NCBI GenBank assembly: GCA_041675145.1
Contig: JBAYUK010000001.1
Location: forward strand, 11,822 to 75,821
Direction: 5' to 3'
DNA: 64,000 bases
From: Patescibacteria group bacterium
Lineage (GTDB): Bacteria; Patescibacteriota; JACPGU01
Shown here: positions 3,663 to 51,880 of the stretch, one piece after another
Position numbering within the stretch: the first letter of the stretch is position 1
Layout of the letters: the number at the start of each line of letters is the position of its first letter
The notes under the pieces: generated by a model
What the model was told of the DNA's origin: nothing
Databases searched by the model: none
Seen by the model: the letters and a program-made list of their open reading frames with translations, nothing else
Position numbers and translations under genes: made by a program

Positions 3663-3691
3663 TTGACAATATTTTCCATAGTATGTATAAT
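3663..3691 (+). promoter_or_regulatory. Perfect sigma-70 consensus promoter
   Basis: TTGACA at 3663-3668, a 17-nt spacer, then TATAAT at 3686-3691. It lies 72 nt upstream of the 3764 start codon. Confidence 0.55.
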
Positions 3692-3763
3692 AGACCATAT
3701 CGTTGCAAATCGGACAATATTTATCATTGTATCTAAACTGTAATACCAGCGAAGTTTACGCAT

Positions 3764-4861
3764 ATGACACAAGGGGAAGCAACTAAACTTGATGCTATCG
3801 CAGCATTCCAAATGAAGGATGCGCATTTTACCAAATTTGCGCGTGATTTGATTTCTCATCTGAAGGAAAAGCAACAGAAGGTGCTTATGAAGCGTTTTGG
3901 TCTCTCGGGACGCAAGCGTGTAACACTTGATGCTATCGGACGAGAGTTTGGTGTTACTCGTGAACGAGTACGCCAGATTGAAGCTGCTTCTATTACGAAA
4001 CTCAAAAAAATCGCAAAGCTCGAGCACAATCAGGGAACATTTGACCGTATCGTAAAAATCCTTGAAGCTCATGGTGGAGCAATGACTGAGGAATCTTTTG
4101 TAAACTCTCTTATTTATGACTTGGATGACAAGCGCATGGATGAGATGAAAAAGATGATCGGTTTTATTCTTCTTCTTTCAGAGGATGTACATGAAATCCC
4201 TGAAAACGATCATACTCGTGCAGGTTTTGCCTTGAAGAAGTACCACCCAACGATGGTAGCCGACCTTGCGCGTGCCTACACTGAAATTTTAGAATCTCGT
4301 CGTGAAGTGATGGGTGACGAAATCCTTATGCAGGAGATTCTAACTCATAAGGTACATGCGAAGTATGTAAAAGACATCACGCCACAGCTCCTACAGTCGG
4401 TAATCGGCCTCTCACGCCTCATTCACACCCATGATGATGGTAAGAAGGGTCTTGTAACCTGGCCATGGGTTAAGCCTCGTACAATCCGTGACAAGATATT
4501 CTATGTCTTGTCTAAGTCTGGCGAGCCAATGCATTTCTCAGATATCGCAACTGCTATTGAACAGCTTCCGTTTGATAACAAGTCAGTGACGGTTCAGACG
4601 GTTCACAACGAACTGATCTCAGATAACCGTTTTGTCCTAGTAGGACGCGGTCTGTACGGCCTTTCTCACTGGGGATTTGAACCAGGAACGGTTGAGGATG
4701 TGATTGCGAAGATTATGGAAAGCCACGGTACGCCACTTGACCAGAACACACTCGTTGAAGAGGTACTTAAGAAAAAGAAGGTTAAAAAAGCCACAATCTT
4801 GATAAATCTTCAGAGTTCAAAGAAATTCAAAAAAACTAAAGAAGGCTATATATTCGCCTAA
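3764..4861 (+). CDS. Sigma-70 region-4 (HTH) domain protein with an unknown C-terminal domain
   Basis: The N-terminal 'LMKRFGLSGRKRVTLDAIGREFGVTRERVRQIEAASITKLKK' is a canonical sigma-70 region 4.2 HTH. There is no region 2, and the remaining ~280 aa are unassigned. Confidence 0.6.
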   Translation: MTQGEATKLDAIAAFQMKDAHFTKFARDLISHLKEKQQKVLMKRFGLSGRKRVTLDAIGREFGVTRERVRQIEAASITKLKKIAKLEHNQGTFDRIVKILEAHGGAMTEESFVNSLIYDLDDKRMDEMKKMIGFILLLSEDVHEIPENDHTRAGFALKKYHPTMVADLARAYTEILESRREVMGDEILMQEILTHKVHAKYVKDITPQLLQSVIGLSRLIHTHDDGKKGLVTWPWVKPRTIRDKIFYVLSKSGEPMHFSDIATAIEQLPFDNKSVTVQTVHNELISDNRFVLVGRGLYGLSHWGFEPGTVEDVIAKIMESHGTPLDQNTLVEEVLKKKKVKKATILINLQSSKKFKKTKEGYIFA

Positions 4862-4883
4862 AAAGATGAAGACAACATGAGGG

Positions 4884-4930
4884 GGAGCGCAGGATAACTT
4901 GAAAGGGTTATGTGCGCTCCTTTTTCTTAT
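4884..4930 (+). terminator. Rho-independent terminator
   Basis: Imperfect 15-bp stem ggagcgcaggataac / ggttatgtgcgctcc with loop ttgaaag, followed by tttttcttattt. Confidence 0.55.
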
Positions 4931-4997
4931 TTGAAATCAGGCGTTAAGGGCATATAATAAAAAGACACTGTGTATTACTGGGTGCAATTTTTAACTT

Positions 4998-7832
4998 TTG
5001 TATATAATGGCAGACTTCTCTCCTGAAACGTTCTATATGTCGCTTGGTCAGCTGATCTTCTGGATCATCTTTTTTGGTGGCATCTATTTCACCTTCAAGC
5101 TGTTTGCAGCAGCATACTCAAAACGACGCAAAAGGTTTTGGTTGGTGAAGCAGAAATACACTACCTTACTTATTCAGGTGCCGCGTAACAACGAGAAGGG
5201 CCCCCAGTCTGCACAGTTTTTCTTTGCCTCACTCCATGGTATTTACAAGAATGCCAAAGAACGCCTTCAAGAAGGGTCTTTCCAGGAACATATTAGTTTC
5301 GAGATTGTCTCTATCGCGAAATACATTCGCTTCTATATCCATGTCCCGGAGCACCTCAAAGACTTTATTGAGGGACAGCTCTATGCTCAGTATCCCAATG
5401 TTGAGATCAAGCAGGTAGAGGACTATACCTTAACGAAAAGACCAGACGGCCTACACTTTGCAGGAACAGAGCTTGTGCTATCGAAAAAGGACTACTACCC
5501 AATAAATACCTTCCAGAACTTTGAAGTCGACCCGCTGGCGGGAATTACGGGAGTACTAGCTCAAGTTGAAGACGGGGAGCAGATTTGGGCACAGGTTCTT
5601 GCTCGTCCAATCGGCGACTCATGGCAGAAGGGAGCGTTTGCGCATATTTCTCAACTCAAGAGTGGTAAAAAATTCGCCATTTCAGGTAATGGCCTTATAC
5701 CAAAAGCATTTAGTTTTCTGGTGATACTTTTAAAGGCTCTTTTTACTCCACCAACTGATAGTAAGGCTGCACCACCCAAGCTCCCAGGGCCTGTAGAGCA
5801 GGCTATTAAGGCAATTGAAGAAAAGTCTACCAAGCTTGGGTACGAGATTGTGATTCGTATTATGTTCTTATCTAAAAAAGAACCTGAGGCAATGAAGCTC
5901 AAACTCCAGTCTATTGCTGGTGCGTTCAAGCAGTTTAATGCCTCGAACTTAAACGGTTTTGCCTATAAGGGGATATCTCTGGATGACCCAGAGTTTCTAA
6001 ACTCATTTCAGACTCGCAACTTTGAGAAAAAAGGCTTTATTTTAAACATTGAAGAACTCGCTTCTGTGTACCACTTGCCAACCGTCTCGGTTGAAACCCC
6101 AAGTATTGTCTGGGCAGGAAGCAAAAAGGGTGAGCCACCTGCAACGCTGCCTATAGAGGGTGTGGTAGGTCCAGATATTCTAACGGTCTTTGGTCGTACC
6201 AACTTCCGTGGTGAAACGGTTAAGTTTGGTATGAAGTTAAATGACCGCCGTCGTCACATGTATATTGTAGGTCAAACCGGTACGGGTAAATCTACCATGA
6301 TTGAAAACATGGCAATTGACGATATCCGAGAAGGCCGTGGTTTGGCTATTTTGGATCCACACGGATCACTGATTGACAACATCATGAAATATATCCCGGA
6401 TCATCGTATCGATGATGTTGTTATCTTTAACCCAGGAGATAAAGAACACTCAGTTGGTTTCAATTTACTTGAAAGTATCAACGACGAGCAACGCGAGATC
6501 GTGGCTTCAGGTATTATGAGTATTTTCAAAAAGATCTGGGAGAATGTGTGGTCTGCTCGTATGGAATACATCATGAAGAATATCATTCTGGCTTTGATGG
6601 AAACACCAGGATCTACCTTCCTGGGGGCAACTAAAATGTTGATTAATAAGGATTACCGTAAATATATTGTAGATAATGTCACTGACCCATTAGTTAAAGA
6701 ATACTGGGTGGATGAGTTTGAAGGACAGGTAAAAAATAACGCTAAATTTATTACGGAGGCAGTTGCCCCGATTCAAAATAAGATCGGACAGTTCTTGGCA
6801 GTGCCATCGGTGCGTTCTATTGTGGGACAAGGGAAAAGTACCATAGATATCAAAGACATCATGGATAACAAGAAGATCTTCTTGATCAAGATCTCGAAAG
6901 GAGAAATCGGAGAAGATAACATGCGTCTTCTTGGAGCGATGATCATCACCAAGATTCAGTTAACCGCGATGGCTCGTGCTGGTATTCCTGAAGACCAGTT
7001 GTCTGACTTCTTTCTTTATGTAGACGAGTTCCAGAACTTTGCTACCTCATCATTTGCAGACATTCTTTCAGAGGCTCGTAAGTACCGTTTGAGTCTAATT
7101 ATTGCGCACCAGTTCATGGCGCAGATGACCGACGACATCCGCGAGGCGGTGGTAGGTAACGTTGGTACCGCTATTGCGTTTCGTGTAGGAGCAAACGATC
7201 CTCCGCTTCTCGTGCGTCTTTTCGCACCTGTCTTTGATGAGAGCGATCTAGTTAATTTAAGCAACTACCATATTTATGTGAAGCTTCTTGTAGATGGACA
7301 GGTCAACTTGCCGTTCTCAGCAACTACTCTTGCTCGTGAAGAAAGACAGGAGACGAATAATGTAGAGAAAATCATTGCACTCTCTCGCTCAAAGTACACC
7401 AAGCCTCGCTCTGAGGTAGAGCAGGATATTCTTACCTGGAGTACCAGTATGTCGGATGTTAAGAATACTCCAAAGGTAGGTAACGGCGAGATGGGGGAAA
7501 CTATAGCGGTAGCTGCTGATGGCACTATTGAAGTTATTCCAGCGAAGCCCAAGATAGCGTACCGTGAACTCAAAGATAAAAAGGGTGGGATCTGGTACTT
7601 GAGAAAAAAGAAAGACGCAGCAGGGGAGGGAGAAGAAGTGCAAAACACTATACCACCTGAAAAGAATGCAACTCAGCAAGAGGTGACAGACGCCAACGAG
7701 AATATACAGGAAGTAGAAATAGCGCCGCACGAAGTAGCGGAACGAGAAATTCATGATGATCTTAAGGATCTAGACTTCGGTTCTAAAAAAGATACTGGCG
7801 AGATCAAAATTGGGCAGGAGATAGAGCTATAA
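4998..7832 (+). CDS. Membrane-anchored TrwB/TraD/VirD4-superfamily P-loop ATPase (type IV coupling-protein-like), paralog A
   Basis: 944 aa. One N-terminal TM (LIFWIIFFGGIYFTFKLF). A ~400-aa N-terminal domain precedes 'MYIVGQTGTGKSTM...AILDPHGSLID...VVIFNPGDKEHSVGFNLLE', which parallels R388 TrwB 'GATGTGKS...VIVDPNGD...IILNP'. Walker B-like 'LYVDEFQNF' and an acidic C-terminal tail. Confidence 0.6.
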   Translation: MYIMADFSPETFYMSLGQLIFWIIFFGGIYFTFKLFAAAYSKRRKRFWLVKQKYTTLLIQVPRNNEKGPQSAQFFFASLHGIYKNAKERLQEGSFQEHISFEIVSIAKYIRFYIHVPEHLKDFIEGQLYAQYPNVEIKQVEDYTLTKRPDGLHFAGTELVLSKKDYYPINTFQNFEVDPLAGITGVLAQVEDGEQIWAQVLARPIGDSWQKGAFAHISQLKSGKKFAISGNGLIPKAFSFLVILLKALFTPPTDSKAAPPKLPGPVEQAIKAIEEKSTKLGYEIVIRIMFLSKKEPEAMKLKLQSIAGAFKQFNASNLNGFAYKGISLDDPEFLNSFQTRNFEKKGFILNIEELASVYHLPTVSVETPSIVWAGSKKGEPPATLPIEGVVGPDILTVFGRTNFRGETVKFGMKLNDRRRHMYIVGQTGTGKSTMIENMAIDDIREGRGLAILDPHGSLIDNIMKYIPDHRIDDVVIFNPGDKEHSVGFNLLESINDEQREIVASGIMSIFKKIWENVWSARMEYIMKNIILALMETPGSTFLGATKMLINKDYRKYIVDNVTDPLVKEYWVDEFEGQVKNNAKFITEAVAPIQNKIGQFLAVPSVRSIVGQGKSTIDIKDIMDNKKIFLIKISKGEIGEDNMRLLGAMIITKIQLTAMARAGIPEDQLSDFFLYVDEFQNFATSSFADILSEARKYRLSLIIAHQFMAQMTDDIREAVVGNVGTAIAFRVGANDPPLLVRLFAPVFDESDLVNLSNYHIYVKLLVDGQVNLPFSATTLAREERQETNNVEKIIALSRSKYTKPRSEVEQDILTWSTSMSDVKNTPKVGNGEMGETIAVAADGTIEVIPAKPKIAYRELKDKKGGIWYLRKKKDAAGEGEEVQNTIPPEKNATQQEVTDANENIQEVEIAPHEVAEREIHDDLKDLDFGSKKDTGEIKIGQEIEL

Positions 7833-7868
7833 AACAGCAGACAGTGCTATATGGGATAGATGAAAAAA

Positions 7869-7897
7869 TACAGAGACACTCCCTCTGTATTTTTTGT
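7869..7897 (+). terminator. Rho-independent terminator
   Basis: Hairpin acagag-acactcc-ctctgt followed by a T7 run. Confidence 0.6.
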
Positions 7898-7991
7898 TAT
7901 TTATCTTTACTTTTATACACGAATGGTATATAATCTACAATACTAATACAAATATGATCTTTAAATCTTCAGACACAGAAAGGAAGGGGAA

Positions 7992-8315
7992 ATGGCCGAC
8001 GCACATAAACGAGCGCTCGAAAAAGCGCTTGCTATGCTTCGGGAAATAAACCCCAAGCATCCACTACTTAAACTACATTACGATCCACTTACTTTAGTGG
8101 ACGAGAAAGGCTACATGGATCAGGAAACATTGTCAGCTAAGAGAAAGAAACTAGCTGATCATCTCTGGCCATGGCCAAAAGAAGAGGGGACTGCTTGGAG
8201 TAACCTCAAGCCTGAGGTACTCTACATTATGCTGGATACTCTCTACTACTCAGCAGTAATGCGAGCAATCACAGAAAGTAAAATAACACAACCTACGCGG
8301 CAGAAGATGCCGTAA
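7992..8315 (+). CDS. Hypothetical protein (107 aa)
   Basis: ORF with GGAAGGGGA upstream of the ATG; no known family. Confidence 0.5.
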   Translation: MADAHKRALEKALAMLREINPKHPLLKLHYDPLTLVDEKGYMDQETLSAKRKKLADHLWPWPKEEGTAWSNLKPEVLYIMLDTLYYSAVMRAITESKITQPTRQKMP

Positions 8316-8342
8316 TTCAAAAAAAGGAAGAAGGAAAGAACG

Positions 8343-9263
8343 ATGATTGAACAATTCAACGAACACCGGTGGCTTATTGCTAGTTTTCTCTTAGCCATGG
8401 TCGTGATGTATGATGTGGTTCTTAAGCTAAGTAAGCTCTCAAAGACCCTAAAGGCCGCAAGGGTACAAAGGGTAATTGATAAAGAGCGTAGGAGACAGTA
8501 TGACTCAAGGATGAATAGGCTTCACATGAAAAGAAGTGAAAATGAGAGAATGATGCAGAGCACTACGCCTTCCGAGATAAGGAAAATACTGATAAATCTA
8601 GATATTCCTAATCTACAGGTTATCAGCCCGCGTGACGAAGACAATGAGATGTTGTTTAGTAGCATCTTCGCAGAAGGCTACCTGGAAGTAGTTGGAAGGA
8701 CCGATGCAGATATTTTACAAGGTTTACTTCCAACAAATGAATACCGCTTGCATCCCACGATGGTTGCAACACGGAAAGCGACTTTTCCTTCCACAGAAGG
8801 GGTGTTTACTACTCTTGAGTTTAAGATGGGTAACCAGCCGAAAGGGATTGCGCTAAGCTTCATGCGGGAAGAGTTTGAGGGTCACGAGTATCTGCGGGTT
8901 CTGATCTTATCCTTTTTCTTCTCCGAGCTATACGAATTGTACGAGCTTGGAGATGGCAAAAGGATTCAGGAGGTGTTCAAGCAGATTGAAGAACGCTTTA
9001 TGTTCGCGCTACGCATCACTCCGACTGCTGGTGGACAAAAGGATATCAATCAGTACTACCGCGACATGTGGTTTCCACTGGCAACCCGTTGGCTGACTCG
9101 TCTTATCAAGAAGTCTAGCCCCATTGCTGTTGAGCAGTATGCAACTGACATCTGGATTGCGATGATGGACAAGATGAATGGGGCGCGTGATCATGTCTGG
9201 GATAAAAGCGTCTCAGCACACTATACTGGGGACATAGTTCCCAGTTATGAAACTCTGAAATGA
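8343..9263 (+). CDS. Hypothetical membrane-anchored protein, paralog 1 of a 3-member family
   Basis: 306 aa with a single N-terminal TM (WLIASFLLAMVVMYDVVL). Shares 'EFEGHEYLRVLILSFFF', 'ITPTAGG...WFPLATRWL' and 'DIWIAMMDKMNG' blocks with the proteins at 9265 and 11561. Confidence 0.55.
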   Translation: MIEQFNEHRWLIASFLLAMVVMYDVVLKLSKLSKTLKAARVQRVIDKERRRQYDSRMNRLHMKRSENERMMQSTTPSEIRKILINLDIPNLQVISPRDEDNEMLFSSIFAEGYLEVVGRTDADILQGLLPTNEYRLHPTMVATRKATFPSTEGVFTTLEFKMGNQPKGIALSFMREEFEGHEYLRVLILSFFFSELYELYELGDGKRIQEVFKQIEERFMFALRITPTAGGQKDINQYYRDMWFPLATRWLTRLIKKSSPIAVEQYATDIWIAMMDKMNGARDHVWDKSVSAHYTGDIVPSYETLK

Positions 9264-9264
9264 A

Positions 9265-10221
9265 ATGAGGGTTGATATGGAACAAGCACAACAACTACTT
9301 CATCAGTGGATGGAGTCTAAAGACTTTTGGTGGCAGTCGATTCTTCTGACATTCCTCATCGCAGCAACCTTCATCATGTGGTCACTTGCTTTTGGCGCAT
9401 TTCTTGCTGCCAGAAGAAAGAGGAAAGACAAAAAAAGAACAAAAGAGGCAATATACCAGACCTACCAGGAGACCTTTCGAAGGATGGAAAACGACAAAGA
9501 AAAGATCACTGAGGAAAAGGGGAAGGAAGCTATGGATGTTTTTGTTTCCTACCTTGATCTCTTCAGGATCAAGGGCATCTTTATTGCGCCATCCAATCGA
9601 CCTTTCTGGGAAGCATGGAAACATGGAACTGTTGAAATTGTTCGCAGTTATGACCAGGAAAAGATTCAAAACGGAGCTGTTCCTGAAGTGAAGTACATCC
9701 ATGATTCTCAAAAGCTGGTCTCGATTAGGGCTGAAGTAGGAGAAGAGGATAATGTGACCATTGCATTTCCAGTAAGTCACAACAAGAGAATAGAGCTCAC
9801 CTTTGTTCCTCAGGAGCTTGAATTTCATGAGTACCTCAGGATTATGATGCTTGCTCTGTTCTACCGCTTTTTCACAAGCTGCGAAAAATATACCGTGAAA
9901 AGGCTCAACGATGACCATGTCAAAAGCGTGATGGACAGGATTGAAGACAAGCTCTGTTACACCATCACAATCGCCCCTGTAGCAGGACATGTAGAGATTG
10001 AAAAACTGAAGCTTTTTTACGCGAAGACCTGGTGGCCCGAGGTGAGAGCTGCACTAGAGAGCATGAGCGGACAAAGCTGGGCAGACAGGCACATCGAAGA
10101 ATACGAACATATTGCCATCTACCTCTGGGTTCGGCTCATGAACTTCCATTATGGAGAAGATGATCGAAACCGCTGGAGACTGGTGGCCTTTTCTCATCTC
10201 ATGAGGGGATGGAATGTGTAG
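9265..10221 (+). CDS. Hypothetical membrane-anchored protein, paralog 2
   Basis: 318 aa. N-terminal TM (ILLTFLIAATFIMWSLAFGAFL), then 'ELEFHEYLRIMMLALFY', 'IAPVAGH...WWPEVRAAL' and 'IAIYLWVRLMNFHYG'. Start abuts the stop of paralog 1. Confidence 0.55.
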   Translation: MRVDMEQAQQLLHQWMESKDFWWQSILLTFLIAATFIMWSLAFGAFLAARRKRKDKKRTKEAIYQTYQETFRRMENDKEKITEEKGKEAMDVFVSYLDLFRIKGIFIAPSNRPFWEAWKHGTVEIVRSYDQEKIQNGAVPEVKYIHDSQKLVSIRAEVGEEDNVTIAFPVSHNKRIELTFVPQELEFHEYLRIMMLALFYRFFTSCEKYTVKRLNDDHVKSVMDRIEDKLCYTITIAPVAGHVEIEKLKLFYAKTWWPEVRAALESMSGQSWADRHIEEYEHIAIYLWVRLMNFHYGEDDRNRWRLVAFSHLMRGWNV

Positions 10222-10246
10222 CTCCCTCATATACAAACAACGACTG

Positions 10247-10282
10247 ACCGCCCGGTGGAACAATCCACCGAGGCGGTTTTTT
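10247..10282 (+). terminator. Rho-independent terminator
   Basis: ccgcccggtggaacaatccaccgaggcgg hairpin plus T6. Same core as the terminator at 12931. Confidence 0.55.
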
Positions 10283-10430
10283 ATTATACATTAACAAGTA
10301 GGGTCTATTCTTTGATTATTATCGCCATAAGCAATAAAAAGTTATATAATGTAGATATCATCAATCGGATGTGAACCTTTACATCATGCGTTAGATATAT
10401 GCCTTGAAATTCAAAAGAGAGGAGGGGTTT

Positions 10431-11150
10431 ATGACTCCTAATAAACAAGACCCTGTTCCTGAAAGATTAGGGAAGAGGGAAGTATGGAAGCAGGTTATCC
10501 AGCCATTTAAAGAAGACCCTGAAAACATGAGGGGCAGGATAGATTGTGGATACCTGCTTGAGGAATGTGTGGTTGAGCAACTGCGTGGGGCAACAAGACA
10601 GGGGAGTAAGCTTCCTATGTTTCACGAAGTGGTACGACATGACCCTAACTCATTTGAGGACAGGCAAGGTAAGGATATTACTCTGACATGGTTTGACGAG
10701 GATGGGCTCAAAATGAAGACATCCATCGGCATTACCATGAATAAAAGTAGTTTCAAAAGGTTTCAAAAGAAACACCCTGGGGTGCAGATATTTCACTTTC
10801 CAATCGAAGTTTCGTTTGAGACTATGGAGCGCGAAATCCTTGAATACTGCTGCCAGGAGAGTCTGCGTTACCGACAGGTAATTAAGATGATTTCTGGCAA
10901 GGAGAATGCCGACATTTGCTACATAGAGGATGCAGAGCCAAAAAAGATTCGGGAGTTTATCCTGGACAAAACACCTCTTGTGGTCTTCAAGTGCACAACA
11001 GGTCTTATGTACCGAGCACGACTAGTGGAGATGCTATCGGTTATGCCGACTGGCATGGCGCTAGTCTACTTAGGTAGAAAAGACTCAGAGATTAACTTTC
11101 TCGACTGGGAGAGTTGCCTGAGAGCTTTTTTTGTCGTAGATCAGGAATAA
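10431..11150 (+). CDS. Hypothetical cytoplasmic protein
   Basis: ORF 10404..11150. Preferred start is ATG 10431 (MTPNKQ) with GAGAGGAGGGG upstream. No family assignment. Confidence 0.5.
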   Translation: MTPNKQDPVPERLGKREVWKQVIQPFKEDPENMRGRIDCGYLLEECVVEQLRGATRQGSKLPMFHEVVRHDPNSFEDRQGKDITLTWFDEDGLKMKTSIGITMNKSSFKRFQKKHPGVQIFHFPIEVSFETMEREILEYCCQESLRYRQVIKMISGKENADICYIEDAEPKKIREFILDKTPLVVFKCTTGLMYRARLVEMLSVMPTGMALVYLGRKDSEINFLDWESCLRAFFVVDQE

Positions 11151-11198
11151 ACCCAGACGGCAGGGTATGCCGAATACACAAGGAAAAAGGAGACGGAA

Positions 11199-11540
11199 AT
11201 GAACGGAGAATCACTTCAATTGCTGGATATGGAGAAACACATCAAAGAGGAGCTGGCCACGCATGTTCGGGTTTACTTTCGAACCAGCGCAGCAATCCGG
11301 ATGGCTAACCTTGCAGAGGCCACAAGGGTGGCTACATACCTTAATGACGCCGTGCTTGAGGAGATTCAAACGCGGATCATCTGTGGCGGTGAGTCGACCG
11401 GGATGACCTCAAATGAGATTCAAAGGCGGCAGATTGCCATCACGACGATTCTTAAAGGTCTTACACCACAATCTGGCAACGAAAATCTGGATAGCGACAG
11501 AGTGAAGTCAGTTGTGGATGAACTGTATGTCCTGTATTAA
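11199..11540 (+). CDS. Hypothetical protein (113 aa)
   Basis: ORF with AAGGAGACGG upstream; no family. Confidence 0.45.
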   Translation: MNGESLQLLDMEKHIKEELATHVRVYFRTSAAIRMANLAEATRVATYLNDAVLEEIQTRIICGGESTGMTSNEIQRRQIAITTILKGLTPQSGNENLDSDRVKSVVDELYVLY

Positions 11541-11560
11541 ACAGGGGAAAGGAGTCTTTC

Positions 11561-12526
11561 ATGGACTTTTGGAATACACCACTCCCACCATGGGGCATGG
11601 TTATTATCGTAATCGCACTGATTGCGGTTGTGACCAGCCTCATCTACTGGGCAAAACATGCGTTGGATGTACGTATCCAACGCAACCTCGTCAAAGAGCG
11701 TGAGAAGGCGGTAACCCCTCCTTCCAAGTCTCCGGAAGAAATCGAGTACAACCGGATGTGCGAATCTCTGGTCGCGGCTGCCGAGAGAACAAGATCAGAG
11801 CAAGAGGAAAGTCTCTCCCAGTCTTCGGTGCGAACAGTGCAGGCTCACTTTGAGGCTTGCGGGATCGAGGATCTCCTGGTCTACCGAGACTCGATAATCA
11901 AACACGACCCCGCTCCACTCAGTCTCGCATGGGGGGAGGGAAGAGTATCTTTTGACAGACCACGCTTCGATGACAGCAATGAGCATGGAGAAAAGTATCT
12001 CCCGAATGTCTACACCCAATATTTCGTGCAAGACCGTGATGCTTTCACGCCGAGCGTGTACCAGTTTGTAAAACCCACGAAAGAACACGCAATCAAGATT
12101 CAGTTCAGGATTCTCGAAGGGAATAGCCGAGACAGCCTTTCAAGAAGGTTCTTCGTAAACCTGTTCTGTTCTCCAAAGGACGACTTCACCACTCCGGAAT
12201 ATCTCGCGCTTCAGCTCTACGCCAGCGGCAAATACAGCGTCGAAGTTGTAGCTGCTGCCACCCATGAGCTGATGGCGCTTATCGAGAAAGCTCCGGCTGA
12301 AGTCGAGGACGCCTACAAGCTTGCTCTGTACTTTGACACCGTTTGGTTGCGGGCAGTGGCCGAGATGCTAGGCGGGTGGTACTACCGGGAAAAGGGTTTC
12401 CCCAGACATGAAGCAGTGAAGCTTGCCTGCGAGTTATGGATCAGTCTTATGAGTCACATGCACGGGGATGATCTGCGTTGGACCTTGGCTACCCTGACCA
12501 CAGTGGAGCGAACAAAGGAGCGCTAA
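11561..12526 (+). CDS. Hypothetical membrane-anchored protein, paralog 3
   Basis: 321 aa. N-terminal TM (MVIIVIALIAVVTSLIYW), then 'TPEYLALQLYASG', 'APAEVEDAYKLALYFDTVWLRAVAEML' and 'ACELWISLMSHMHGDDLRW', co-linear with paralogs 1 and 2. Confidence 0.55.
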   Translation: MDFWNTPLPPWGMVIIVIALIAVVTSLIYWAKHALDVRIQRNLVKEREKAVTPPSKSPEEIEYNRMCESLVAAAERTRSEQEESLSQSSVRTVQAHFEACGIEDLLVYRDSIIKHDPAPLSLAWGEGRVSFDRPRFDDSNEHGEKYLPNVYTQYFVQDRDAFTPSVYQFVKPTKEHAIKIQFRILEGNSRDSLSRRFFVNLFCSPKDDFTTPEYLALQLYASGKYSVEVVAAATHELMALIEKAPAEVEDAYKLALYFDTVWLRAVAEMLGGWYYREKGFPRHEAVKLACELWISLMSHMHGDDLRWTLATLTTVERTKER

Positions 12527-12560
12527 TAACCAATAGCGTCTCTCAACACAACATGCCGTA

Positions 12561-12911
12561 ATGGTAGAAAGGAAGTATATGGAAAGCCTACTGTTGGTGG
12601 CCCTGATCATTCTTCTGGCAACTCGTGGCTTTCGGGCGACATTTAGCCATGATGGCCAGGAGAGTGATCCTTCGCTTTGCGAACACTACTTTGGCGTCTT
12701 GGACAATGCTCCGGTTCCTCTTGGATACAACGTGTGCGAGTTGCGTGCATTTGGCCAGAAAGTCCGTGTTGCTTTTAAGGGATCAACGGATCTTATGAAA
12801 GGAGAAGGAAAGTTGGTCTTTGATGTGCCTAATGAAACTAGGCTTCCTTTTCCTCCAGGTCGCCTCGTTGTATGGAGACAAGAAGGACTGTGGGTATTTC
12901 GCCCCTTTTAA
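12561..12911 (+). CDS. Small secreted or anchored hypothetical protein
   Basis: 116 aa with N-terminal hydrophobic segment LLLVALIILLATRGF. Confidence 0.45.
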   Translation: MVERKYMESLLLVALIILLATRGFRATFSHDGQESDPSLCEHYFGVLDNAPVPLGYNVCELRAFGQKVRVAFKGSTDLMKGEGKLVFDVPNETRLPFPPGRLVVWRQEGLWVFRPF

Positions 12912-12930
12912 GGGGTTTCTGATAGGGTTT

Positions 12931-12967
12931 AACCCTGCCCGGTGGAGCAATCTACCGGGTATTTTTA
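12931..12967 (+). terminator. Rho-independent terminator
   Basis: ccctgcccggtggagcaatctaccgggt hairpin followed by atttttat. Paralogous to the 10247 terminator. Confidence 0.5.
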
Positions 12968-13518
12968 TGTCAAAATGGTACTATTGACACGAATAGGGTA
13001 TTAGTGTTTTAGTATGGATTTTCTAGGATGTGATAAAAAAAGGGCATAGAGGCAGGTAGGGTAGGGAAATGAAGGGAGTTATATGAAAAACAAATATAAA
13101 AAATTTATATGGAATATTTTTTGAGACAGAAGTTTTGAGGGGATAGTCCACAGTTACCAGAAGGGTGTGGATAACATATGTCGCACAATGTATCTTATGC
13201 GACATAAAGCAGGGGTTTCTGGGGGAAAGCTGGGGCTTGCATGTGGTACGGATTTTGGTGTGTATTTTGCATTGGAATTACTCTTAAAAAAAATAAATTT
13301 ATATTTTTGTATTTCATACTTCTCTCTCAAACTATCTCTCTTTTTTTATAATCATACTTCCCCACCGATTTCTAAATTTTGAGTCTAGGCACCCATAGGT
13401 CCACTTCTTCTTTTTTTAGACAAAATAATAGCGCAGTTTTTAGGCTGCGCCCCGCGAATGCGGATCAAATAGTTCCCCCTACGACGAGACGGAGGCTACC
13501 GTCTCAATTAAAGCCGTA

Positions 13519-13959
13519 CTATGGAGTTTGGATGGTGGTTACTGGGTATTCTTCCAGCAAGAACAGTCCCTGGTTGAGTGTTATAAGACAGGTTTTCCCA
13601 TGGTCGTACTTATTGATATGTGTCTCGATAAGCTCAGTTAGTCTTGGGACAGATATTTCCATGCACTCTACCCAGACCCGAGGCTTGTAGTCGCCCTCTG
13701 CTGTGATGATTGTTTCAACAGTAGTCCTTGGTATGTTGCGCTGAAAAATTTCAAGCCTGGTTGTGGCAGTGATGTACTTGCGATTTAAAACCGACAAGAA
13801 TAGGAAATCTAGTTCCTTAGCCGCTGTCAGTTTGAAGTGATCGATTGCAGACTGGATCAGGTCTTTTGCATTGAATACATCAGATTCTTCCTGAATCACC
13901 AGGTCTCCAGCATCGTTGATGCTGGTAACGAATTTTGATCTTGGTTCCATAGCTACCAC
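13519..13959 (-). CDS. Hypothetical protein (146 aa)
   Basis: Clean ORF with no family. Confidence 0.5.
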   Translation of the reverse strand: MVAMEPRSKFVTSINDAGDLVIQEESDVFNAKDLIQSAIDHFKLTAAKELDFLFLSVLNRKYITATTRLEIFQRNIPRTTVETIITAEGDYKPRVWVECMEISVPRLTELIETHINKYDHGKTCLITLNQGLFLLEEYPVTTIQTP

Positions 13960-14156
13960 CTTTCGTTGTTTTTGTGGGTTGTCTCAAAGCATGGCTCAAG
14001 CATATTCCCCGGTGTTTTTCGGTATATGCTGTATACCATAAATATCACAAGCGGAATGGAAATTCCTGCAAGAAAAATAAGGAACAACGCACAAACAATA
14101 ACTAACCAAAAACATCCTGGACTGGTCTTTCTCTGGGTTTGGTATCCATGTCGCAC
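13953..14156 (-). CDS. Possible small 2-TM membrane protein with GTG start
   Basis: 67 aa with two hydrophobic helices. Start overlaps the ATGTCGCACAAT motif and the ORF overlaps the downstream gene by 7 nt. Confidence 0.3.
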   Translation of the reverse strand: MRHGYQTQRKTSPGCFWLVIVCALFLIFLAGISIPLVIFMVYSIYRKTPGNMLEPCFETTHKNNERW

Positions 14157-14272
14157 AATATTGCTCCTTCTCTGTGTTGTTTAGGTTCGCTTAAGCGTAC
14201 TGCTTGTGGTTATTGTATCATAGGTACTATAAAAGCGCTATTTCTAGCGCTTTTATAGTGTTTCTTGTCTAA

Positions 14273-14827
14273 TTATTCAGCAAATCCCATAGCGGCAGAC
14301 TCGATTGCTGCCCAGTTGGTTTCTTCACCAGCTGGTAGTGCAATGGTTACCTGGTCGCCAGGAGAGATTTTATAATAGGTGACGGATGCGAGGAGAACCT
14401 TGTAGGTCTTCCCTTCTGCCATTACCTTATAATTGCCGTCTTCATATACAAGAGAACCTACCACACGACGGCGATCAATTTGCTTGATCTGTTTGTACTT
14501 AAACGTACCGTCGTCTTCAATAGTGAGTTTGAGAGTATCTCCGGGTACAAATTTGGATTTACTGGCATAATTAGCCGGCACAGGATATTTTTTCTTATCC
14601 GATCCAATCATCATTTCGCCGTCAAAAATACCTTCGATTACTTTCCCTTCGGTAATAATCGAGAGACCTTCAGCTCGAGAGCCAAGATCTGCACTTTTGA
14701 GTTTGCGTCCCTTCGTAGGGATACCTGAGAGTTCTGACAATAGTTCACGAGCTGAGCGCAATTGCGCTTCAGCTGATTCGATCAAATGACGCACAGTGTC
14801 GACACTCTGTTGTTCATCTCGTAGCAT
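14273..14827 (-). CDS. Hypothetical protein (184 aa)
   Basis: Coiled-coil-like N-terminus; no family. Confidence 0.5.
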   Translation of the reverse strand: MLRDEQQSVDTVRHLIESAEAQLRSARELLSELSGIPTKGRKLKSADLGSRAEGLSIITEGKVIEGIFDGEMMIGSDKKKYPVPANYASKSKFVPGDTLKLTIEDDGTFKYKQIKQIDRRRVVGSLVYEDGNYKVMAEGKTYKVLLASVTYYKISPGDQVTIALPAGEETNWAAIESAAMGFAE

Positions 14828-14981
14828 TGTTGCCCCTTCCCTATTTATTTAGTGGTATGTATCTTGGTTTGTAACCCGGCTTTTCACCTGGTTTTCAAGA
14901 TTAATCACATTATACCATAGAAACTAAATATATGCAAGGGTTTTAAATAGTGCAACAGATATGAGTATCTTAATTATTATC

Positions 14982-15698
14982 TTATATCTGATTAGGTACT
15001 GTCGGCGTTGGTTCATTGGTAGGCAATGTAGTACCGCTTCCTGTGCCAGTATTATTTACATCTGGATTTTGTCTGAAGTTTGGATCTGTGACTGGAGACC
15101 CAAGATTAACTCCGCCTGTAGCTGGTGTTACAGGAGAACCAATATCAACTCCAGTAGTACCGGGTAGATGCTGGTCGACTGGCGTTCCACCATCTCCACT
15201 GGGTGTTGGAGTAGGAGCTGGGTTACTTGTCGCAGGAGTTGCGCCGTTTAAGATCAGGTTGTTGGTATATGCCACTAGCGCATAGGACATCATTGCAATA
15301 ACTCCCCCAATAATGGCACCGGAGAGAGCCTTCTTCGCGGTCTCAACTTTCTTTGAGTCCCCTGCTGATGACGTGTACATGAGCCCGGATACAATAATCA
15401 TGAGTACCATAATGAGCGATGAGATTCCCAGAAGGTAGCCAAGAATTTTCTGTGCAAAACACAAGATAAGTGCCCTTCCATCGCCGTCGTTGGCTGCAGT
15501 TGCACACTTCAAGTCGTGTTGGTCTGCAGAAGTAGCGTTTTTCAATACTTCGTCAGGAGTAGCTGGGGTATCTGCACTAATATGTGCTTGTTCTGGTACT
15601 GAACTGAAACCAACAGCGCTCGCATATACCGGTGTAATGCCGAAGTTTACTCCAAGTAGTAGTGCTGTAAACGAAAGGATAAGTATGTGTTTTTTCAT
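14982..15698 (-). CDS. Secreted membrane protein with VirB2/TrbC-pilin-like topology and a Pro/Thr/Gly-rich tail
   Basis: Signal peptide MKKHILILSFTALLLGVNFGITPVYASA. A Cys pair is followed by two hydrophobic helices (ILGYLLGISSLIMVLMIIVSGLMY, IIGGVIAMMSYALVAYT) separated by a ~20-aa loop, then an ~80-aa PT-rich low-complexity tail. Lies 8 nt downstream of ATPase paralog B. Confidence 0.4.
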   Translation of the reverse strand: MKKHILILSFTALLLGVNFGITPVYASAVGFSSVPEQAHISADTPATPDEVLKNATSADQHDLKCATAANDGDGRALILCFAQKILGYLLGISSLIMVLMIIVSGLMYTSSAGDSKKVETAKKALSGAIIGGVIAMMSYALVAYTNNLILNGATPATSNPAPTPTPSGDGGTPVDQHLPGTTGVDIGSPVTPATGGVNLGSPVTDPNFRQNPDVNNTGTGSGTTLPTNEPTPTVPNQI

Positions 15699-15706
15699 AG
15701 TGTTTG

Positions 15707-18211
15707 TTAGCCGGCTCGTAGTCTAATTTCTTCTTCGACAATATCACGGTCGCGTCCGTATTTCAATCGAGATAATTGTGTAATTGCCTCAACCAGTTTC
15801 TGGTTTGGTGGTGGCACTTTACTCATATCTTTAAAGTGGTTCAGAGAAAAGGCACGCAAGCTGGTGTTGTTTGCCAGAAGCTTAATATATGAGTTGAAAG
15901 CCTCAACATTGATCAGGTCGTTAACTGAGAATACCGGATCATAGACCTTAGCCATCTCCTCTGCGTCATCTACGCCGATTCGAAATGAGACCATAGTACC
16001 GGCATTACCAAACACAGCGTCATGTATTTGGGTGTTATTATTCTGTGTGAGCTGTCCAATGTACTGATGAGCAACCGTTAGAGCCAGGCCGTACTTGCGT
16101 GCCTCAGACAGGATGTCAGCCACTGCTTTGGTTGAGAAGTTCTGGAACTCGTCCATATATAAGTAAAAGGTCTTACGATCGGCTTCCTTCATATCTGCAC
16201 GACTCATAGCGGCAAGGTAAATCTTAGAGACCATGATAAGGCCTAGAAGAGACATATTCTCCTCCCCTATTCGGCCCTTCGATAAGTTTAAGAGGAGGAT
16301 CTTTTGGTTGTCCATAATCTCACGCACATTAAATGCGCTTTTTTGTTGGGCAATGATCGGGCGCATAATGTCGTTGGCTATAAACTTCGTCATCTTTGAA
16401 GTTACATATGGTACGACATTGGCAAGAGCTGCCTCCCCTCCTGCTTTCTCTGCTTCTTTAAGCCAGTAGTTTTTGATAATAGGGTTTTGACACTTTGAGA
16501 TTTTGTATGCTCTGAAATCTTCGTCGGAAAGTACTTTTGGAATTTCCATTAGGGTCGATCCACTTTCTACATCTTCCATAACGAGTAAGGCGGCGTTTCT
16601 GAAATATTGCTCAAACATCGGTCCACCAGTAGACTTTAAGTCGTAGAGTTTATCAAAGACATTCATAAGTTCTGAAACTGCCAGAGACCGTTCCTCGGGA
16701 CTATTAAATTCAAGTAAGTTGAGTCCCATTGGTCTCTCATAGTCACCGGGGTTGAAGATAATAACATCTTCTGCCCGTTCGCGTGGGATTTGCTGTAGTA
16801 TGCGGTCAATAGATTCGCCGTGCGGATCGATATAGCAAACTCCCCTGCCTGCTCGAATATCTTGCACACACAGATCCTCAATAAAGGTAGATTTACCCGT
16901 ACCAGACTTACCAATTACATACATATGGCGCATCCGATCCTCTGGTCTCATATAGACTGGAGTGCGCACACCACGAAAAATATTAGTACCAAGGTATAGA
17001 CCCTCTTTAGGTACTTCTGGTGGTGCCGGAGCTCGTTTCGAGGTGAGCCATTTAATGCTTGGCGTTTCTGTATTGCGATTTGGGAGGTGGAATAGGCTCG
17101 CTAACTCATCGCAGTTTAAGATGGACTTTGAGCCGTCATATGGCATTGCTCTGAAGATAAAGTCCTGGGTAATCTGTGTATCTGATCTGCCTTTTACTCG
17201 AATGAGCTTGTTCCCGGTTGGGCTATTGAAGACCGTAAAGGAACTGAGGATATTAGCTAGATGCATCTTCGAGTTGGCAACTTCAGGGCTCGCCACTACT
17301 ACGCGAATAACGGTTTCAAAGCCAACCAAAGAAGCCTTCTCCCCTATCATCTTTATCTTTTGTTCGGTTATAGGCGAGAGAGTTTTTTGTTTTTCTTCCT
17401 TATATTCCTCCGTCTTAGAGGCAGCAGAAGCTAAAGTCTTGCCGAAGCTCAAACTACCCTCCCCTATTTTTTTCCATGTGAGGTCTCCTCCTGAAATCTT
17501 CTTCCCTTCTTGGAGCTGCTTGATATGGAATTCAGATCCCTTATGCCAGGTATTTTTAGCCGGTCGAATCAAAAACTGAATGGATGCTGCTTCCCCACTG
17601 GCTAGCTTTGAAAGTGACGACGTAATGGTATTAAGTGTATCTGTCTCAAATTCCTTATATGTTTTAATCGGCAACGAAACAACATCAGAAAGCGTAAGCT
17701 CTGCTGTCTGAACTTTGGTGGTGTCTGAGAAAATATTGTACCTTTCTACTTCTTCCATGTAGGCATCCGGATAAAAGCTATGGATTTGTTTTTCAACGAG
17801 ATCGACGAGTTCCTGTGGTACGGCAACATAGAAGGTAATTACACCGTCAATTGAGGCTATTTCAAATGAAACATGCGCCCCTTTCTTATACCATGACTTG
17901 TTCAGCTGAGTGTCCGCTATAGAATAGAGCGATGAAAACATCTGAGAGGCACGAGCAACCAAGTCTTTTGGATCTTTTTTACTCTCCTCTTCATCACGAC
18001 TCGATTTTTTTGGTACTAAGATCTGGAGCAGTACCATGTTGACTGAGCGAGAAATCTTCCCCTTCTCATACCGGTACTCTTGCAGGATCTGGTAGAGCAA
18101 GACTGCACAGAGTACAAAAAGCCCTGCTCCGATTAAGGCATAAAAAAGAACCAACGGATTTATTCCCGCAGACCCAGCATCAAAACTTGTAGCATTGTAC
18201 GATACCGCCAT
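15707..18211 (-). CDS. Membrane-anchored TrwB/TraD/VirD4-superfamily P-loop ATPase, paralog B
   Basis: 834 aa. N-terminal TM. 'MYVIGKSGTGKSTFIEDLCVQDIRAGRGVCYIDPHGESIDRIL...VIIFNPGDYERPMGLNLLE' is co-linear with paralog A, the N-terminal domains are also similar, and 'LYMDEFQNF' is present. Confidence 0.6.
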   Translation of the reverse strand: MAVSYNATSFDAGSAGINPLVLFYALIGAGLFVLCAVLLYQILQEYRYEKGKISRSVNMVLLQILVPKKSSRDEEESKKDPKDLVARASQMFSSLYSIADTQLNKSWYKKGAHVSFEIASIDGVITFYVAVPQELVDLVEKQIHSFYPDAYMEEVERYNIFSDTTKVQTAELTLSDVVSLPIKTYKEFETDTLNTITSSLSKLASGEAASIQFLIRPAKNTWHKGSEFHIKQLQEGKKISGGDLTWKKIGEGSLSFGKTLASAASKTEEYKEEKQKTLSPITEQKIKMIGEKASLVGFETVIRVVVASPEVANSKMHLANILSSFTVFNSPTGNKLIRVKGRSDTQITQDFIFRAMPYDGSKSILNCDELASLFHLPNRNTETPSIKWLTSKRAPAPPEVPKEGLYLGTNIFRGVRTPVYMRPEDRMRHMYVIGKSGTGKSTFIEDLCVQDIRAGRGVCYIDPHGESIDRILQQIPRERAEDVIIFNPGDYERPMGLNLLEFNSPEERSLAVSELMNVFDKLYDLKSTGGPMFEQYFRNAALLVMEDVESGSTLMEIPKVLSDEDFRAYKISKCQNPIIKNYWLKEAEKAGGEAALANVVPYVTSKMTKFIANDIMRPIIAQQKSAFNVREIMDNQKILLLNLSKGRIGEENMSLLGLIMVSKIYLAAMSRADMKEADRKTFYLYMDEFQNFSTKAVADILSEARKYGLALTVAHQYIGQLTQNNNTQIHDAVFGNAGTMVSFRIGVDDAEEMAKVYDPVFSVNDLINVEAFNSYIKLLANNTSLRAFSLNHFKDMSKVPPPNQKLVEAITQLSRLKYGRDRDIVEEEIRLRAG

Positions 18212-18345
18212 TGATGTGTGTGTTGGTGGTGTATTGCTTATATAGTACCTCCCCTCCCCTGATTTGTATAGAGGAAATTATCTAGACATACTAGAGTAAA
18301 TAGTATATAATTTAGATACAAATAAAAGGAAAGAAGGTCTTTGAC

Positions 18346-51342: not shown

Positions 51343-51343
51343 G

Positions 51344-51880
51344 TTATTTTGCGTTTGGTCTCCTGCCGCGAGTTTTGTGATATCGTAACAGTATTTTATT
51401 CTCAAGCGTCTCAAGATTTAAAAAGTCGTCGGTCTTAGCGAGTAGCGCTGCTGAAGCTGATCTCTCAAAGGCTGCTACCTCTACTAATTTTCCGTGGTTT
51501 TGTAAGTATTCAACCAGTGGGATATAGTCTCCATCACCAGATACGAGAATGAGTGAGTCGATGGATGGTGCCATTTTAATCATATCCATCGCAAGACCTA
51601 CATCCCAGTCGGCTTTTTTCGTACCGTCAGCAAAGGTCTGGAGATCCTTGGTCTTTACTTCGTACCCTGCTTTATTGAGAGCGTCAAAAAAGCTTTGCTC
51701 TTCTGGCATTTGGGCCTTTACCGCGTAGGCAATGGCTCGGATGAGCTTGCGCTCCCCGACCGATTCTTTTAAGATGGCACCAAAGTTTACCTTCGAGCCG
51801 TAGAGGTGGCGAGCTGAATAGTACATGTTCTGGACATCTACAAACACTGCTACGCGCTGTTCCTTGTTTTTTATTATCAT
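51344..51880 (-). CDS. NYN-domain (LabA-like, PIN-like) protein
   Basis: 'VAVFVDVQNMYYS' and 'LILVSGDGDYIPLV'. Confidence 0.7.
   Translation of the reverse strand: MIIKNKEQRVAVFVDVQNMYYSARHLYGSKVNFGAILKESVGERKLIRAIAYAVKAQMPEEQSFFDALNKAGYEVKTKDLQTFADGTKKADWDVGLAMDMIKMAPSIDSLILVSGDGDYIPLVEYLQNHGKLVEVAAFERSASAALLAKTDDFLNLETLENKILLRYHKTRGRRPNAK

Follow-up and report, generated by a model that had tools for sequence, protein, structure and literature searches.

Patescibacteria are dependent on host bacteria, and a T4SS-like apparatus is essential in the sole genetically tractable species of the phylum. S. epibionticum cannot do without its T4SS cluster or the pilins of that cluster (PMC10633639). 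T4CP homologues number 5,713 in 2,918 Patescibacteria genomes, with VirD4-type coupling-protein homologues at about two per genome and usually far from virB4 (only 148 lie near it); VirB2-like pilins are widespread, relaxases are rare, and a separate, genuine VirB4 clade is also present (PMC12102498). In classical T4CPs, the motor follows directly on a pair of TM helices. The two ATPases described here are near-universal in the phylum, and published surveys have treated them as ordinary 'coupling proteins', perhaps exapted.

Here we analysed a 64-kb stretch of Patescibacteria DNA (the window) that encodes one ATPase of each type, A and B, for which we establish identity, architecture, paralogy and conserved partners. 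A sequence-only reading had seen in it a novel system that included an island of uncharacterised proteins; the locus is instead a known gene pair on either side of strain-specific filler.

A convergent pair of paralogous ATPases

The A-type ATPase (4998..7832, + strand; 944 aa from a TTG at 4998, or 941 aa from the ATG at 5007 in the public gene call) and the B-type ATPase (15707..18211, − strand; 834 aa) are convergent and about 8 kb apart. Over 762 aa they are 39% identical (E 7e-164), in an alignment that takes in the N-terminal as well as the ATPase domain, and are paralogs, as the sequence-only reading had proposed. The motifs it cited are readable in the translations: Walker A (GQTGTGKST in A, GKSGTGKST in B), Walker B (DEFQNF in both), a DPHGS (A) or DPHGE (B) block, and an IFNPGD block continuing to GFNLLE in A and GLNLLE in B. 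Walker A and B are intact in both proteins and invariant in the family alignment. By hydrophobicity, each ATPase has a single N-terminal helix (residues 15–33 in A and 20–38 in B; 19–50 in the AF2 model), followed by a DUF8128 (VirB4-NTD-like) domain and a T4CP-like nucleotide-binding domain; A ends in a variable acidic C-terminal tail (about residues 812–944).

Affinities of the motor and N-terminal domains

Both ATPases passed the Pfam gathering scores for TrwB_AAD_bind, T4SS-DNA_transf, TraG-D_C and DUF87 (PF10412, PF02534 and PF12696 all being over threshold in both), with E-values of 1.7e-13 and 8.2e-12 for TrwB_AAD_bind in the local scan. Together with the hydrophobic helix, these matches bear out the proposal that the proteins are membrane-anchored TrwB/TraD-like ATPases with one TM helix. 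For the motor domain, a profile search of the PDB placed TrwB (1e9r, the best match, E 2.8e-7) and DotL above HerA, whose chains gave only local matches at E 1.5e-3 or worse, and no VirB4 chain appeared up to E 10. VirB4 sequence models stayed under threshold (AAA_10, 13.7 bits against a cut-off of 27.5; TIGR00929, 28 against 643), PF03135 (CagE_TrbE_VirB) had no match in Pfam and NCBIfam scans of the ATPases, and FtsK_SpoIIIE reached 14.2 and 12.5 bits against a cut-off of 24, leaving no FtsK family-level match in Pfam. Judged by sequence, the motor domain is T4CP-like.

The large N-terminal domain, which the earlier reading had rightly singled out as unusual, is present in both ATPases. Its AF2 model (pLDDT 90.3, pTM 0.86) was searched with Foldseek, and the best 14 matches were all TrwK chains (E 1e-6 to 2e-4); as modelled, this domain of roughly 350 aa has the fold of the VirB4 N-terminal domain. 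PF26449 (DUF8128) matched neither ATPase in our local Pfam scan; precomputed annotations of the public proteins identical to A and B (P0001 and P0121) list PF26449 together with PF10412.

Genes between the ATPases

Directly 3′ of A, a terminator-like hairpin of 13 pairs (7863..7895, + strand) separates this gene from seven ORFs of 107, 306, 318, 248, 113, 321 and 116 aa (7992..12911, + strand), which have their own promoter-like site and end at a second terminator-like hairpin (12936..12961, + strand) repeated with 90% identity at 10250–10270. The seven ORFs form a transcription-unit-like block of their own. Block members that were scanned matched no Pfam, NCBIfam, PHROGs or PADLOC family, and the block ORFs are singletons in clustering against 89 loci; the same holds for a 146-aa orphan ORF in the variable gap (13519..13959, − strand), which has no family in those four collections and is a singleton in the locus clustering. 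About 11 genes had been said to lack a recognisable family; one of them, 14273–14827, belongs to a very large conserved family. Three tandem paralogs had also been proposed: 8343–9263 and 9265–10221 are indeed related (25% identity over 196 aa, E 5e-13), whereas 11561–12526 matches over 70 aa only (E 3.5e-4) and is at best weakly related. The ORF at 9265–10221, the one island member compared with a library of 1.84 billion representative proteins, found no homologue there except itself and the neighbouring paralog. Several island proteins carry N-terminal membrane anchors.

Five related genomes keep the order B, pilin, OB protein, variable gap, A, HARE-HTH, DUF1290 and SecFD, and in more distant genomes B is followed by OB and/or HARE-HTH and then A, in tandem. 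All seven block ORFs are absent from the five relatives, which include L001, L003, L090 and L091, and the gap in related loci holds a HAD hydrolase, DAHP synthase and a TIG/NHL protein instead. What lies between A and B is lineage-specific cargo in a variable gap, not a conserved module, and the idea that these genes make up a translocation module has to be given up because relatives retain the convergent pair without the block. The sequence-only reading had been staked on the ATPases not being closer to VirB4, FtsK or HerA than to T4CPs and on synteny of the intervening genes, and this check has gone half against it: these genes are non-syntenic and the N-domain has a VirB4-like modelled fold, whereas the motor is T4CP-like by sequence.

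The wider context is that of a chromosome, with DnaX at +2, XerC/D-like, NrdR, TGT and SecDF proteins as housekeeping neighbours of A and B; other ORFs of at least 500 aa in the window are housekeeping or unrelated. A T4SS-family scan covered the ORFs of the window except some twenty small ones that lie beyond the flagged region; it found no relaxase, VirB4 or VirB6 among the ORFs scanned, and no T4SS family outside that region. Among these ORFs, nothing links A and B genetically to a T4SS cluster or to a relaxase/Dtr module, in line with the earlier view that this is not a canonical conjugation locus. The reported absence of VirB4, VirB6 and relaxase holds for the scanned ORFs of the window only; a minimal system lacking VirB4 cannot be concluded from 64 kb, because T4CP homologues usually lie far from virB4 (PMC12102498).

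Recurrent partners of A and B

Eight nucleotides after the B stop codon begins a 238-aa gene (14982..15698, − strand) whose product has a signal-peptide-like segment, two TM helices (hydrophobic segments at 5–23, 78–107 and 124–142) and a Pro/Thr-rich C-terminal tail. It scores 31.5 bits against PF18895 T4SS_pilin (cut-off 26.6, E 1.8e-7), with matches below cut-off to TrbC/VirB2 (23.2 bits) and to the NCBIfam Mbov_0395 pilin-like model (23.3 bits against 40, E 3.9e-5), and is predicted to be a VirB2/TrbC-type T4SS pilin, as had been suspected. Orthologues occupy the equivalent position in L001, L003, L090 and L091. Given the 8-nt gap, B is very likely co-transcribed with the pilin in this clade. 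Adjacency of the pilin to B was seen in this clade only, in 4 distinct genomes among 89 sources (two loci being same-sequence copies), and L090 and L091 later gave two more genomes with the pilin next to B. That this adjacency is limited to a small clade counts against reading A and B as T4SS accessories.

The next gene (14273..14827, − strand; 184 aa) encodes a protein that starts with a long helix and continues into two OB (S1/cold-shock-like) barrels. An OB-fold protein lies next to B, downstream, in about one third of B loci (24 of 74), an adjacency that could reflect conserved gene order without shared function. A perfect 15-nt inverted repeat (14226..14259, − strand), 14 nt past the OB-fold stop codon, is a candidate end of the B–pilin–OB transcription unit and may serve as its terminator.

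Upstream of A is a 365-aa DNA-binding protein (3764..4861, + strand) with Sigma70_r4 (E 1.2e-11) and HARE-HTH (E 6.5e-10) matches in Pfam. A HARE-HTH homologue precedes A on the same strand in 37 of 51 metagenome loci, within 300 bp in 33 of them, and the pair recurs in S. epibionticum as SEML1_0294 (HARE-HTH) followed by SEML1_0293 (A-type). Upstream of the HARE-HTH gene, a sigma-70-type sequence (TTGACA-17-TATAAT; 3663..3691, + strand) agrees with the promoter consensus at 12 of 12 positions; this is a consensus match only, and such sites are not more numerous in the region than expected from shuffling.

Two orthologous groups across the phylum

The A-type ATPase scored 1334 bits against an A-type HMM and 701 against a B-type HMM (a difference of +633), and the corresponding A-minus-B difference for the B-type ATPase was −507. 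These differences are bimodal across loci, and every two-copy locus consists of one A and one B. On sequence grounds, A and B belong to two ancient orthologous groups that span the phylum, their members in Patescibacteria running to thousands. Identical sequences are already annotated in NCBI, JGI and ENA. The window's proteins are members of the Patescibacteria DUF8128 ATPases (PF26449 plus PF10412) and nothing different in kind; the case for a novel kind of module lapses, as both groups have already been annotated and counted as T4CP homologues (PMC12102498). Among 80 GTDB loci fetched around a B-type ATPase, only 2 have an A-type copy within 10 kb. S. epibionticum has two proteins of this architecture, SEML1_0142, which is essential, and SEML1_0293. 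On the basis of its architecture and a small essential gene upstream, SEML1_0142 is a candidate B-type orthologue.

Proposed role and alternatives

We favour, with a probability of about 55%, a role for A and B as motors accessory to a Patescibacteria T4SS-like apparatus, presumably encoded elsewhere. The two would form membrane-anchored ring ATPases, as separate rings or a mixed one, with their VirB4-like N-domains docking onto inner-membrane parts of the apparatus (VirB3/PrgI, VirB6 and VirB8-like). B, because of its pilin neighbour, may power pilin extraction and pilus assembly. Both motors may also recruit or translocate a substrate that is probably nucleic acid, B together with its OB-fold partner, A together with its HARE-HTH partner and a C-terminal tail that is variable. 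Against this accessory role, A/B-type genes and the virB4 cluster are unlinked in most genomes (PMC12102498), SEML1_0293, identified by synteny as the A-type orthologue, is not needed by S. epibionticum in co-culture, and no physical or genetic tie of these ATPases to the virB4 cluster has been reported anywhere. A bolder version, which we regard as speculative and rather improbable, makes the DUF8128 ATPases a third, Patescibacteria-specific lineage of T4SS motors (a VirB4 N-domain on a T4CP-like engine) and a living intermediate of the VirB4/T4CP split, with A and B as a two-component or mixed-ring motor and with B, its pilin and the OB protein making up, in this clade, a pilus and nucleic-acid transfer module able to work without a classical VirB4.

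Alternatively, A and B may work independently of any T4SS, as membrane nucleic-acid translocases or remodelers (acting, say, in the export or uptake of DNA or in the handling of the chromosome) with the OB-fold and HARE-HTH partners as substrate adaptors. The nucleic-acid-binding folds of these partners, the housekeeping chromosomal context, the usual distance from virB4 and the 'exaptation' raised by the survey authors (both PMC12102498) all speak for this explanation. We nevertheless consider it unlikely, though deserving real weight: the N-domain is VirB4-like in particular, and only T4SS inner-membrane complexes are known to have this fold; the 8-nt gap makes it very likely that B and a T4SS pilin are co-transcribed in this clade; S. 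epibionticum encodes a genuine FtsK, itself essential, so that A and B are no FtsK replacement; and ComEC-dependent competence already covers DNA uptake in that species (PMC10633639).

That both ATPases join with the 11 or so genes between them in a single, self-contained and novel system spanning the envelope seems barely credible, even though the genes lie physically between the ATPases, several of their products are membrane-anchored, and VirB4 and VirB6 are absent among the scanned ORFs; no related locus with the convergent pair has the island genes, unrelated cargo taking their place, 9265–10221 has no homologue beyond its own paralog in 1.84e9 representatives, a terminator-like hairpin stands between A and the block, and A and B are not neighbours in most genomes. 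It is equally far-fetched to see in the locus what is left of an integrated element, conjugative or mobilisable, or else an anti-phage defence locus built on ATPases of HerA or MADS type. The ATPases are T4CP-like, and the motor matches PADLOC mad8 (E 1.9e-18 and 2.7e-14) and HerA, with weak matches to HerA chains in the PDB; these defence-model matches are limited to the generic P-loop domain, however, PADLOC found no further MADS or HerA-system partner at the locus, searches there for an integrase, a relaxase and flanking att-like repeats were negative, and A and B are kept phylum-wide in housekeeping contexts with TGT and SecDF as conserved flanks.

Comparison with known systems

These findings bear on the motor side of the essential T4SS-like apparatus and account for the fact that no classical coupling protein had been recognised in the Saccharibacterial T4SS cluster; a VirB4-type docking domain, an ancient A/B pair and recurrent nucleic-acid-binding partners together lead to testable hypotheses on T4SS motors. 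With T4CPs (TrwB of R388, VirD4, TraD and DotL) A and B share a homologous motor, including the region that Pfam calls the all-alpha or DNA-binding domain; the agreement extends to the Walker A and B motifs and to the TraG-D_C match, and in the PDB their sequences match TrwB and DotL best. Unlike classical T4CPs, they have one TM helix and then a VirB4-NTD-like domain before Walker A, no relaxase/Dtr partner among the window ORFs scanned, and the standing of core genes of the chromosome, not of a mobile element. VirB4/TrwK has the N-domain fold in common with them but differs in that A and B carry their own TM helix and no VirB4 sequence signature. FtsK/SpoIIIE and HerA belong to the same ASCE ring-translocase superclass, with weak P-loop matches under family thresholds, and A and B are without FtsK alpha or gamma domains. 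As Patescibacteria DUF8128 ATPases, they match the survey in numbering about two copies per genome away from virB4 (PMC12102498); peculiar to the window's clade among such loci are the convergent arrangement of the paralogs and a VirB2-like pilin directly after B.

Two ancient paralogous ATPases

Two large ORFs in the window, at 4998-7832 (+) and 15707-18211 (-), encode ATPases of 944 and 834 aa, hereafter A and B, which had been described from the sequence alone as membrane-anchored paralogs. Pairwise alignment bore this out: A and B are 39% identical (E = 7e-164) across 762 residues, from the N-terminal region as well as the ATPase, and each protein has a single N-terminal hydrophobic helix. 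The translations of A and B contain, respectively, Walker A as GQTGTGKST and GKSGTGKST, a second motif as DPHGS and DPHGE, and a third motif ending in GFNLLE and GLNLLE (IFNPGD...GFNLLE in A), with Walker B DEFQNF in both; these motifs are invariant columns in an alignment of 34 family members. Pfam TrwB_AAD_bind exceeded its gathering score in both ATPases (E = 1.7e-13 and 8.2e-12), as did T4SS-DNA_transf, TraG-D_C and DUF87, with FtsK_SpoIIIE and AAA_10 below threshold in the same scan; against NCBIfam, only sub-threshold matches to the TraD and VirD4-like models were obtained.

Homology searches returned more than 6,100 scored homologues for A and more than 3,100 for B, nearly all from Patescibacteria. 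Both proteins are identical to public entries of a Patescibacteria group bacterium MAG, and their closest non-self matches are 46-64% identical to A and 45-63% identical to B. When each set of hits was turned into an HMM and the ATPases of 88 fetched loci were scored with both, these fell into two non-overlapping score classes, and every two-copy locus carried exactly one A and one B, as did the two-copy metagenome loci retrieved later. Together with the 39% identity between A and B, these results indicate at the sequence level that the two are ancient paralogs and not the product of a local duplication.

A-type ATPases also have a long, variable, acidic C-terminal extension (residues ~812-944 in A), in which two short motifs, Y.E.....G..WY and a terminal G..I.L, are conserved across orthologues. 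In classical coupling proteins, such C-terminal tails bind adaptors. At several metagenome loci (L144, L146, L150-L153, L160-L162, L165, L166, L168 and L170), the A-type ATPase is split into at least two ORFs under genetic code 11; these may come from UGA-recoding lineages, such as Gracilibacteria or Absconditabacteria, rather than being pseudogenes.

A VirB4-like N-domain on a coupling-protein-like motor

To characterize the N-terminal domain (DUF8128, PF26449), residues 1-420 of B were modelled with AF2 from a 73-sequence alignment (pLDDT 90.3, pTM 0.86), and the model was compared with the PDB. The top matches were TrwK chains. Because the query ends ahead of Walker A, and because no other P-loop protein (TrwB, FtsK, HerA or the VirB4 C-terminal domain) was among the PDB structure matches, we infer that the modelled domain corresponds to the VirB4 N-terminal domain. 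For the motor, a family-profile search of the PDB retrieved TrwB (E = 2.8e-7), DotL and then HerA but not a single VirB4 chain at E-values as high as 10; by its sequence, the motor sides with coupling proteins. The structural match of the N-domain and the sequence match of the motor thus point to a predicted architecture in which one transmembrane helix leads into a VirB4-NTD-like domain followed by a T4CP-like motor. A literature search found no paper describing this architecture and none on DUF8128.

Variable cargo between A and B

The window is a stretch of ordinary Patescibacteria (CPR) chromosome, with SecD/SecF, TGT, MurA, a DEAD helicase, FtsZ/FtsA, IleRS, HisRS, ThyA/DHFR and a CCA-adding enzyme as neighbours and without tRNA or Rfam features; its closest relatives are labelled Microgenomates and CPR3. 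It also encodes two SNase homologues, at 36600-37247 (-) and 50674-51414 (-), both with N-terminal hydrophobic or signal-like segments; these nucleases are probably secreted or surface-located and used to scavenge nucleotides.

The genes bracketed by A and B (the island) had been taken to form one translocation module with the ATPases. Five related genomes that retain the convergent frame (L001/L002, L003, L089, L090 and L091; 55-63% identity) share the order TGT, B, a PF18895 pilin, a 180-186-aa protein, a variable gap and A on the reverse strand, followed by a Sigma70_r4/HARE-HTH protein, a DUF1290 protein, SecF and SecD; the L089 sequence stops past its 183-aa gene and shows the B side only. 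The gap holds one 219-aa gene in L090 (6900-8340), a HAD hydrolase in L003 (14800-16400), a DAHP synthase and an 826-aa TIG/NHL protein in L091 (12900-17300), and a seven-ORF block (7992-12911) in the window (7832-14273). The intervening genes are therefore not syntenic with the ATPases, the gap content differing in each relative that keeps the frame, and the A-B gap behaves like a hotspot of variable cargo.

The block itself consists of singletons when clustered against all loci. PHROGs, PADLOC, Pfam and NCBIfam gave no family for the island proteins scanned, and when the 9265-10221 product was searched exhaustively with HMMER against 1.84 billion representatives, only the protein itself and the neighbouring paralog were recovered. 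Three tandem paralogs had been proposed here. Between the products of 8343-9263 (+) and 9265-10221 (+) the relationship is clear (E = 5e-13); that of the third, at 11561-12526 (+), is only weak (E = 3.5e-4 over 70 aa). A terminator-like hairpin (7863-7895) lies directly after A, a promoter-like site precedes 7992, and another hairpin (12936-12961) marks the end of the block. A further GC-rich hairpin at 10250-10270 is near-identical (90%) to 12937-12957, each following a unit of the block, which suggests that the block grew by duplication of a gene-plus-terminator unit. Given the variable gap, the singleton genes, the lack of any homologue of the 9265-10221 product beyond its neighbour, and the hairpins and promoter-like site, the island is strain-specific cargo between two convergent units, not a component set. 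The single-module reading is rejected on the lack of families among the island proteins scanned, of homologues of 9265-10221 other than its neighbour, and of synteny.

Neighbours that recur with A and B

Of 80 GTDB species loci fetched around B-type genes, only two have an A-type copy less than 10 kb away, one in tandem (L045) and one a partial copy (L084). B is found upstream of A on the same strand in all three A-type loci looked up and in 7 of the 40 metagenome loci with enough flank; on these counts the A-B linkage is an old one that has frequently been lost. Only in the window's clade is the orientation convergent.

Several neighbours recur more broadly. The 184-aa product of 14273-14827 (-), which has no Pfam family, has a counterpart downstream of B in 24 of 74 loci, no more than 3 kb away and in the same orientation, and dnaX often comes after it. 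Its Patescibacteria homologues number more than 7,815 (51-79% identity), with the invariant motif YPVPANYASKSK...GD.LKLT. Its predicted structure combines a long helix with two OB (S1/cold-shock-like) barrels, and it seems to be an uncharacterised core protein of the whole phylum that binds nucleic acids; it is wrongly named ribosomal protein L7/L12 in one UniRef entry. Directly upstream of A, a Sigma70_r4/HARE-HTH protein is present in 37 of 51 loci (within 300 bp in 33). The window's copy, a 365-aa protein at 3764-4861 (+), has an N-terminal Sigma70_r4 and a HARE-HTH domain and no sigma region 2. In other lineages, small acidic proteins of ~130-176 aa whose helical C-terminus is conserved (fam3 and fam5, mutually unrelated by hhalign) immediately precede B in 48 loci (for example, L055 9310-9840 and L065 1564-1983). 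Both families are absent from the window's clade, which removes them as an upstream partner for B here.

The ORF at 14982-15698 (-), which had been called a VirB2-like pilin candidate, passes PF18895 (T4SS_pilin); besides two hydrophobic helices, its product has a signal-peptide-like segment and a tail rich in Pro and Thr. The ORF starts 8 nt downstream of the B stop codon, and the two genes are very likely co-transcribed. A jackhmmer search with the pilin core across all ORFs of the 88 fetched loci and the window found B-adjacent pilins only in the window's clade, plus a pilin array 8.7 kb distant at one other locus. This clade-limited adjacency rejects the pilin as a general partner of B.

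Counterparts in S. epibionticum

Both the T4SS cluster and its pilin array are essential in S. epibionticum, and a coupling protein was not recognised within the cluster (PMC10633639). Tn-seq tables for this organism include two proteins with the A/B architecture. SEML1_0293 (921 aa; PF10412 at 402-719) is non-essential and lies directly downstream of the essential SEML1_0294 (Sigma70_r4 plus HARE-HTH), the A-type synteny; we assign it as the A-type orthologue by synteny and architecture only. SEML1_0294 is annotated 'RpoS'. SEML1_0142 (P-loop domain 381-800) is essential, as is the 139-aa SEML1_0141 just upstream, in the position of fam3/fam5 before B; by architecture and this small upstream gene, rather than by sequence, SEML1_0142 would be the B-type orthologue. 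A genuine FtsK, also essential, is present.

Possible roles and relation to known systems

We propose that A and B would act as ring ATPases anchored in the membrane through the N-terminal helix, with the VirB4-like N-domain docking them onto T4SS inner-membrane components. In R388, the TrwK N-domain contacts the VirB3 and VirB8 tails. B, with its VirB2-like pilin neighbour, might drive pilin extraction or pilus growth, and A, with a DNA-binding partner and its long variable tail, could receive the substrate, which the OB-fold and HARE-HTH partners suggest to be nucleic acid. The main rival explanation is that both are T4SS-independent nucleic-acid translocases, which would be in keeping with their genes usually being unlinked from virB4. 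In the window itself, as the sequence-only reading had held, there is no VirB4 candidate among the other ORFs of at least 500 aa, and the ORFs scanned beyond the flagged region, all but about twenty small ones and with both polytopic membrane proteins among them, gave no T4SS family.

Other readings fare less well. Flanking direct repeats, an integrase and a relaxase were all not found at the locus, leaving a mobile element rejected and an ICE remnant unlikely. PADLOC matches to mad8 and HerA are confined to the generic motor and the partner genes of those systems are absent, so that a defence locus is also unlikely. Replacement of FtsK is rejected because S. epibionticum carries an essential FtsK beside both ATPases, and a self-contained system of A, B and the bracketed genes is unlikely.

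The observation of paired ATPases is therefore confirmed and its interpretation partly supported: the system is not novel, since A and B belong to a known, already annotated, functionally uncharacterised kind, and the useful leads are the VirB4-like N-domain and the partner proteins. A survey of 2,918 Patescibacteria genomes recovered 5,713 VirD4-type T4CP homologues, 148 of them near virB4, found VirB2-like pilins to be widespread and relaxases rare, and suggested exaptation of t4cp genes (PMC12102498). Proteins of the A/B kind were handled there simply as T4CP, and the A/B pair matches the VirD4-type homologues of that survey.
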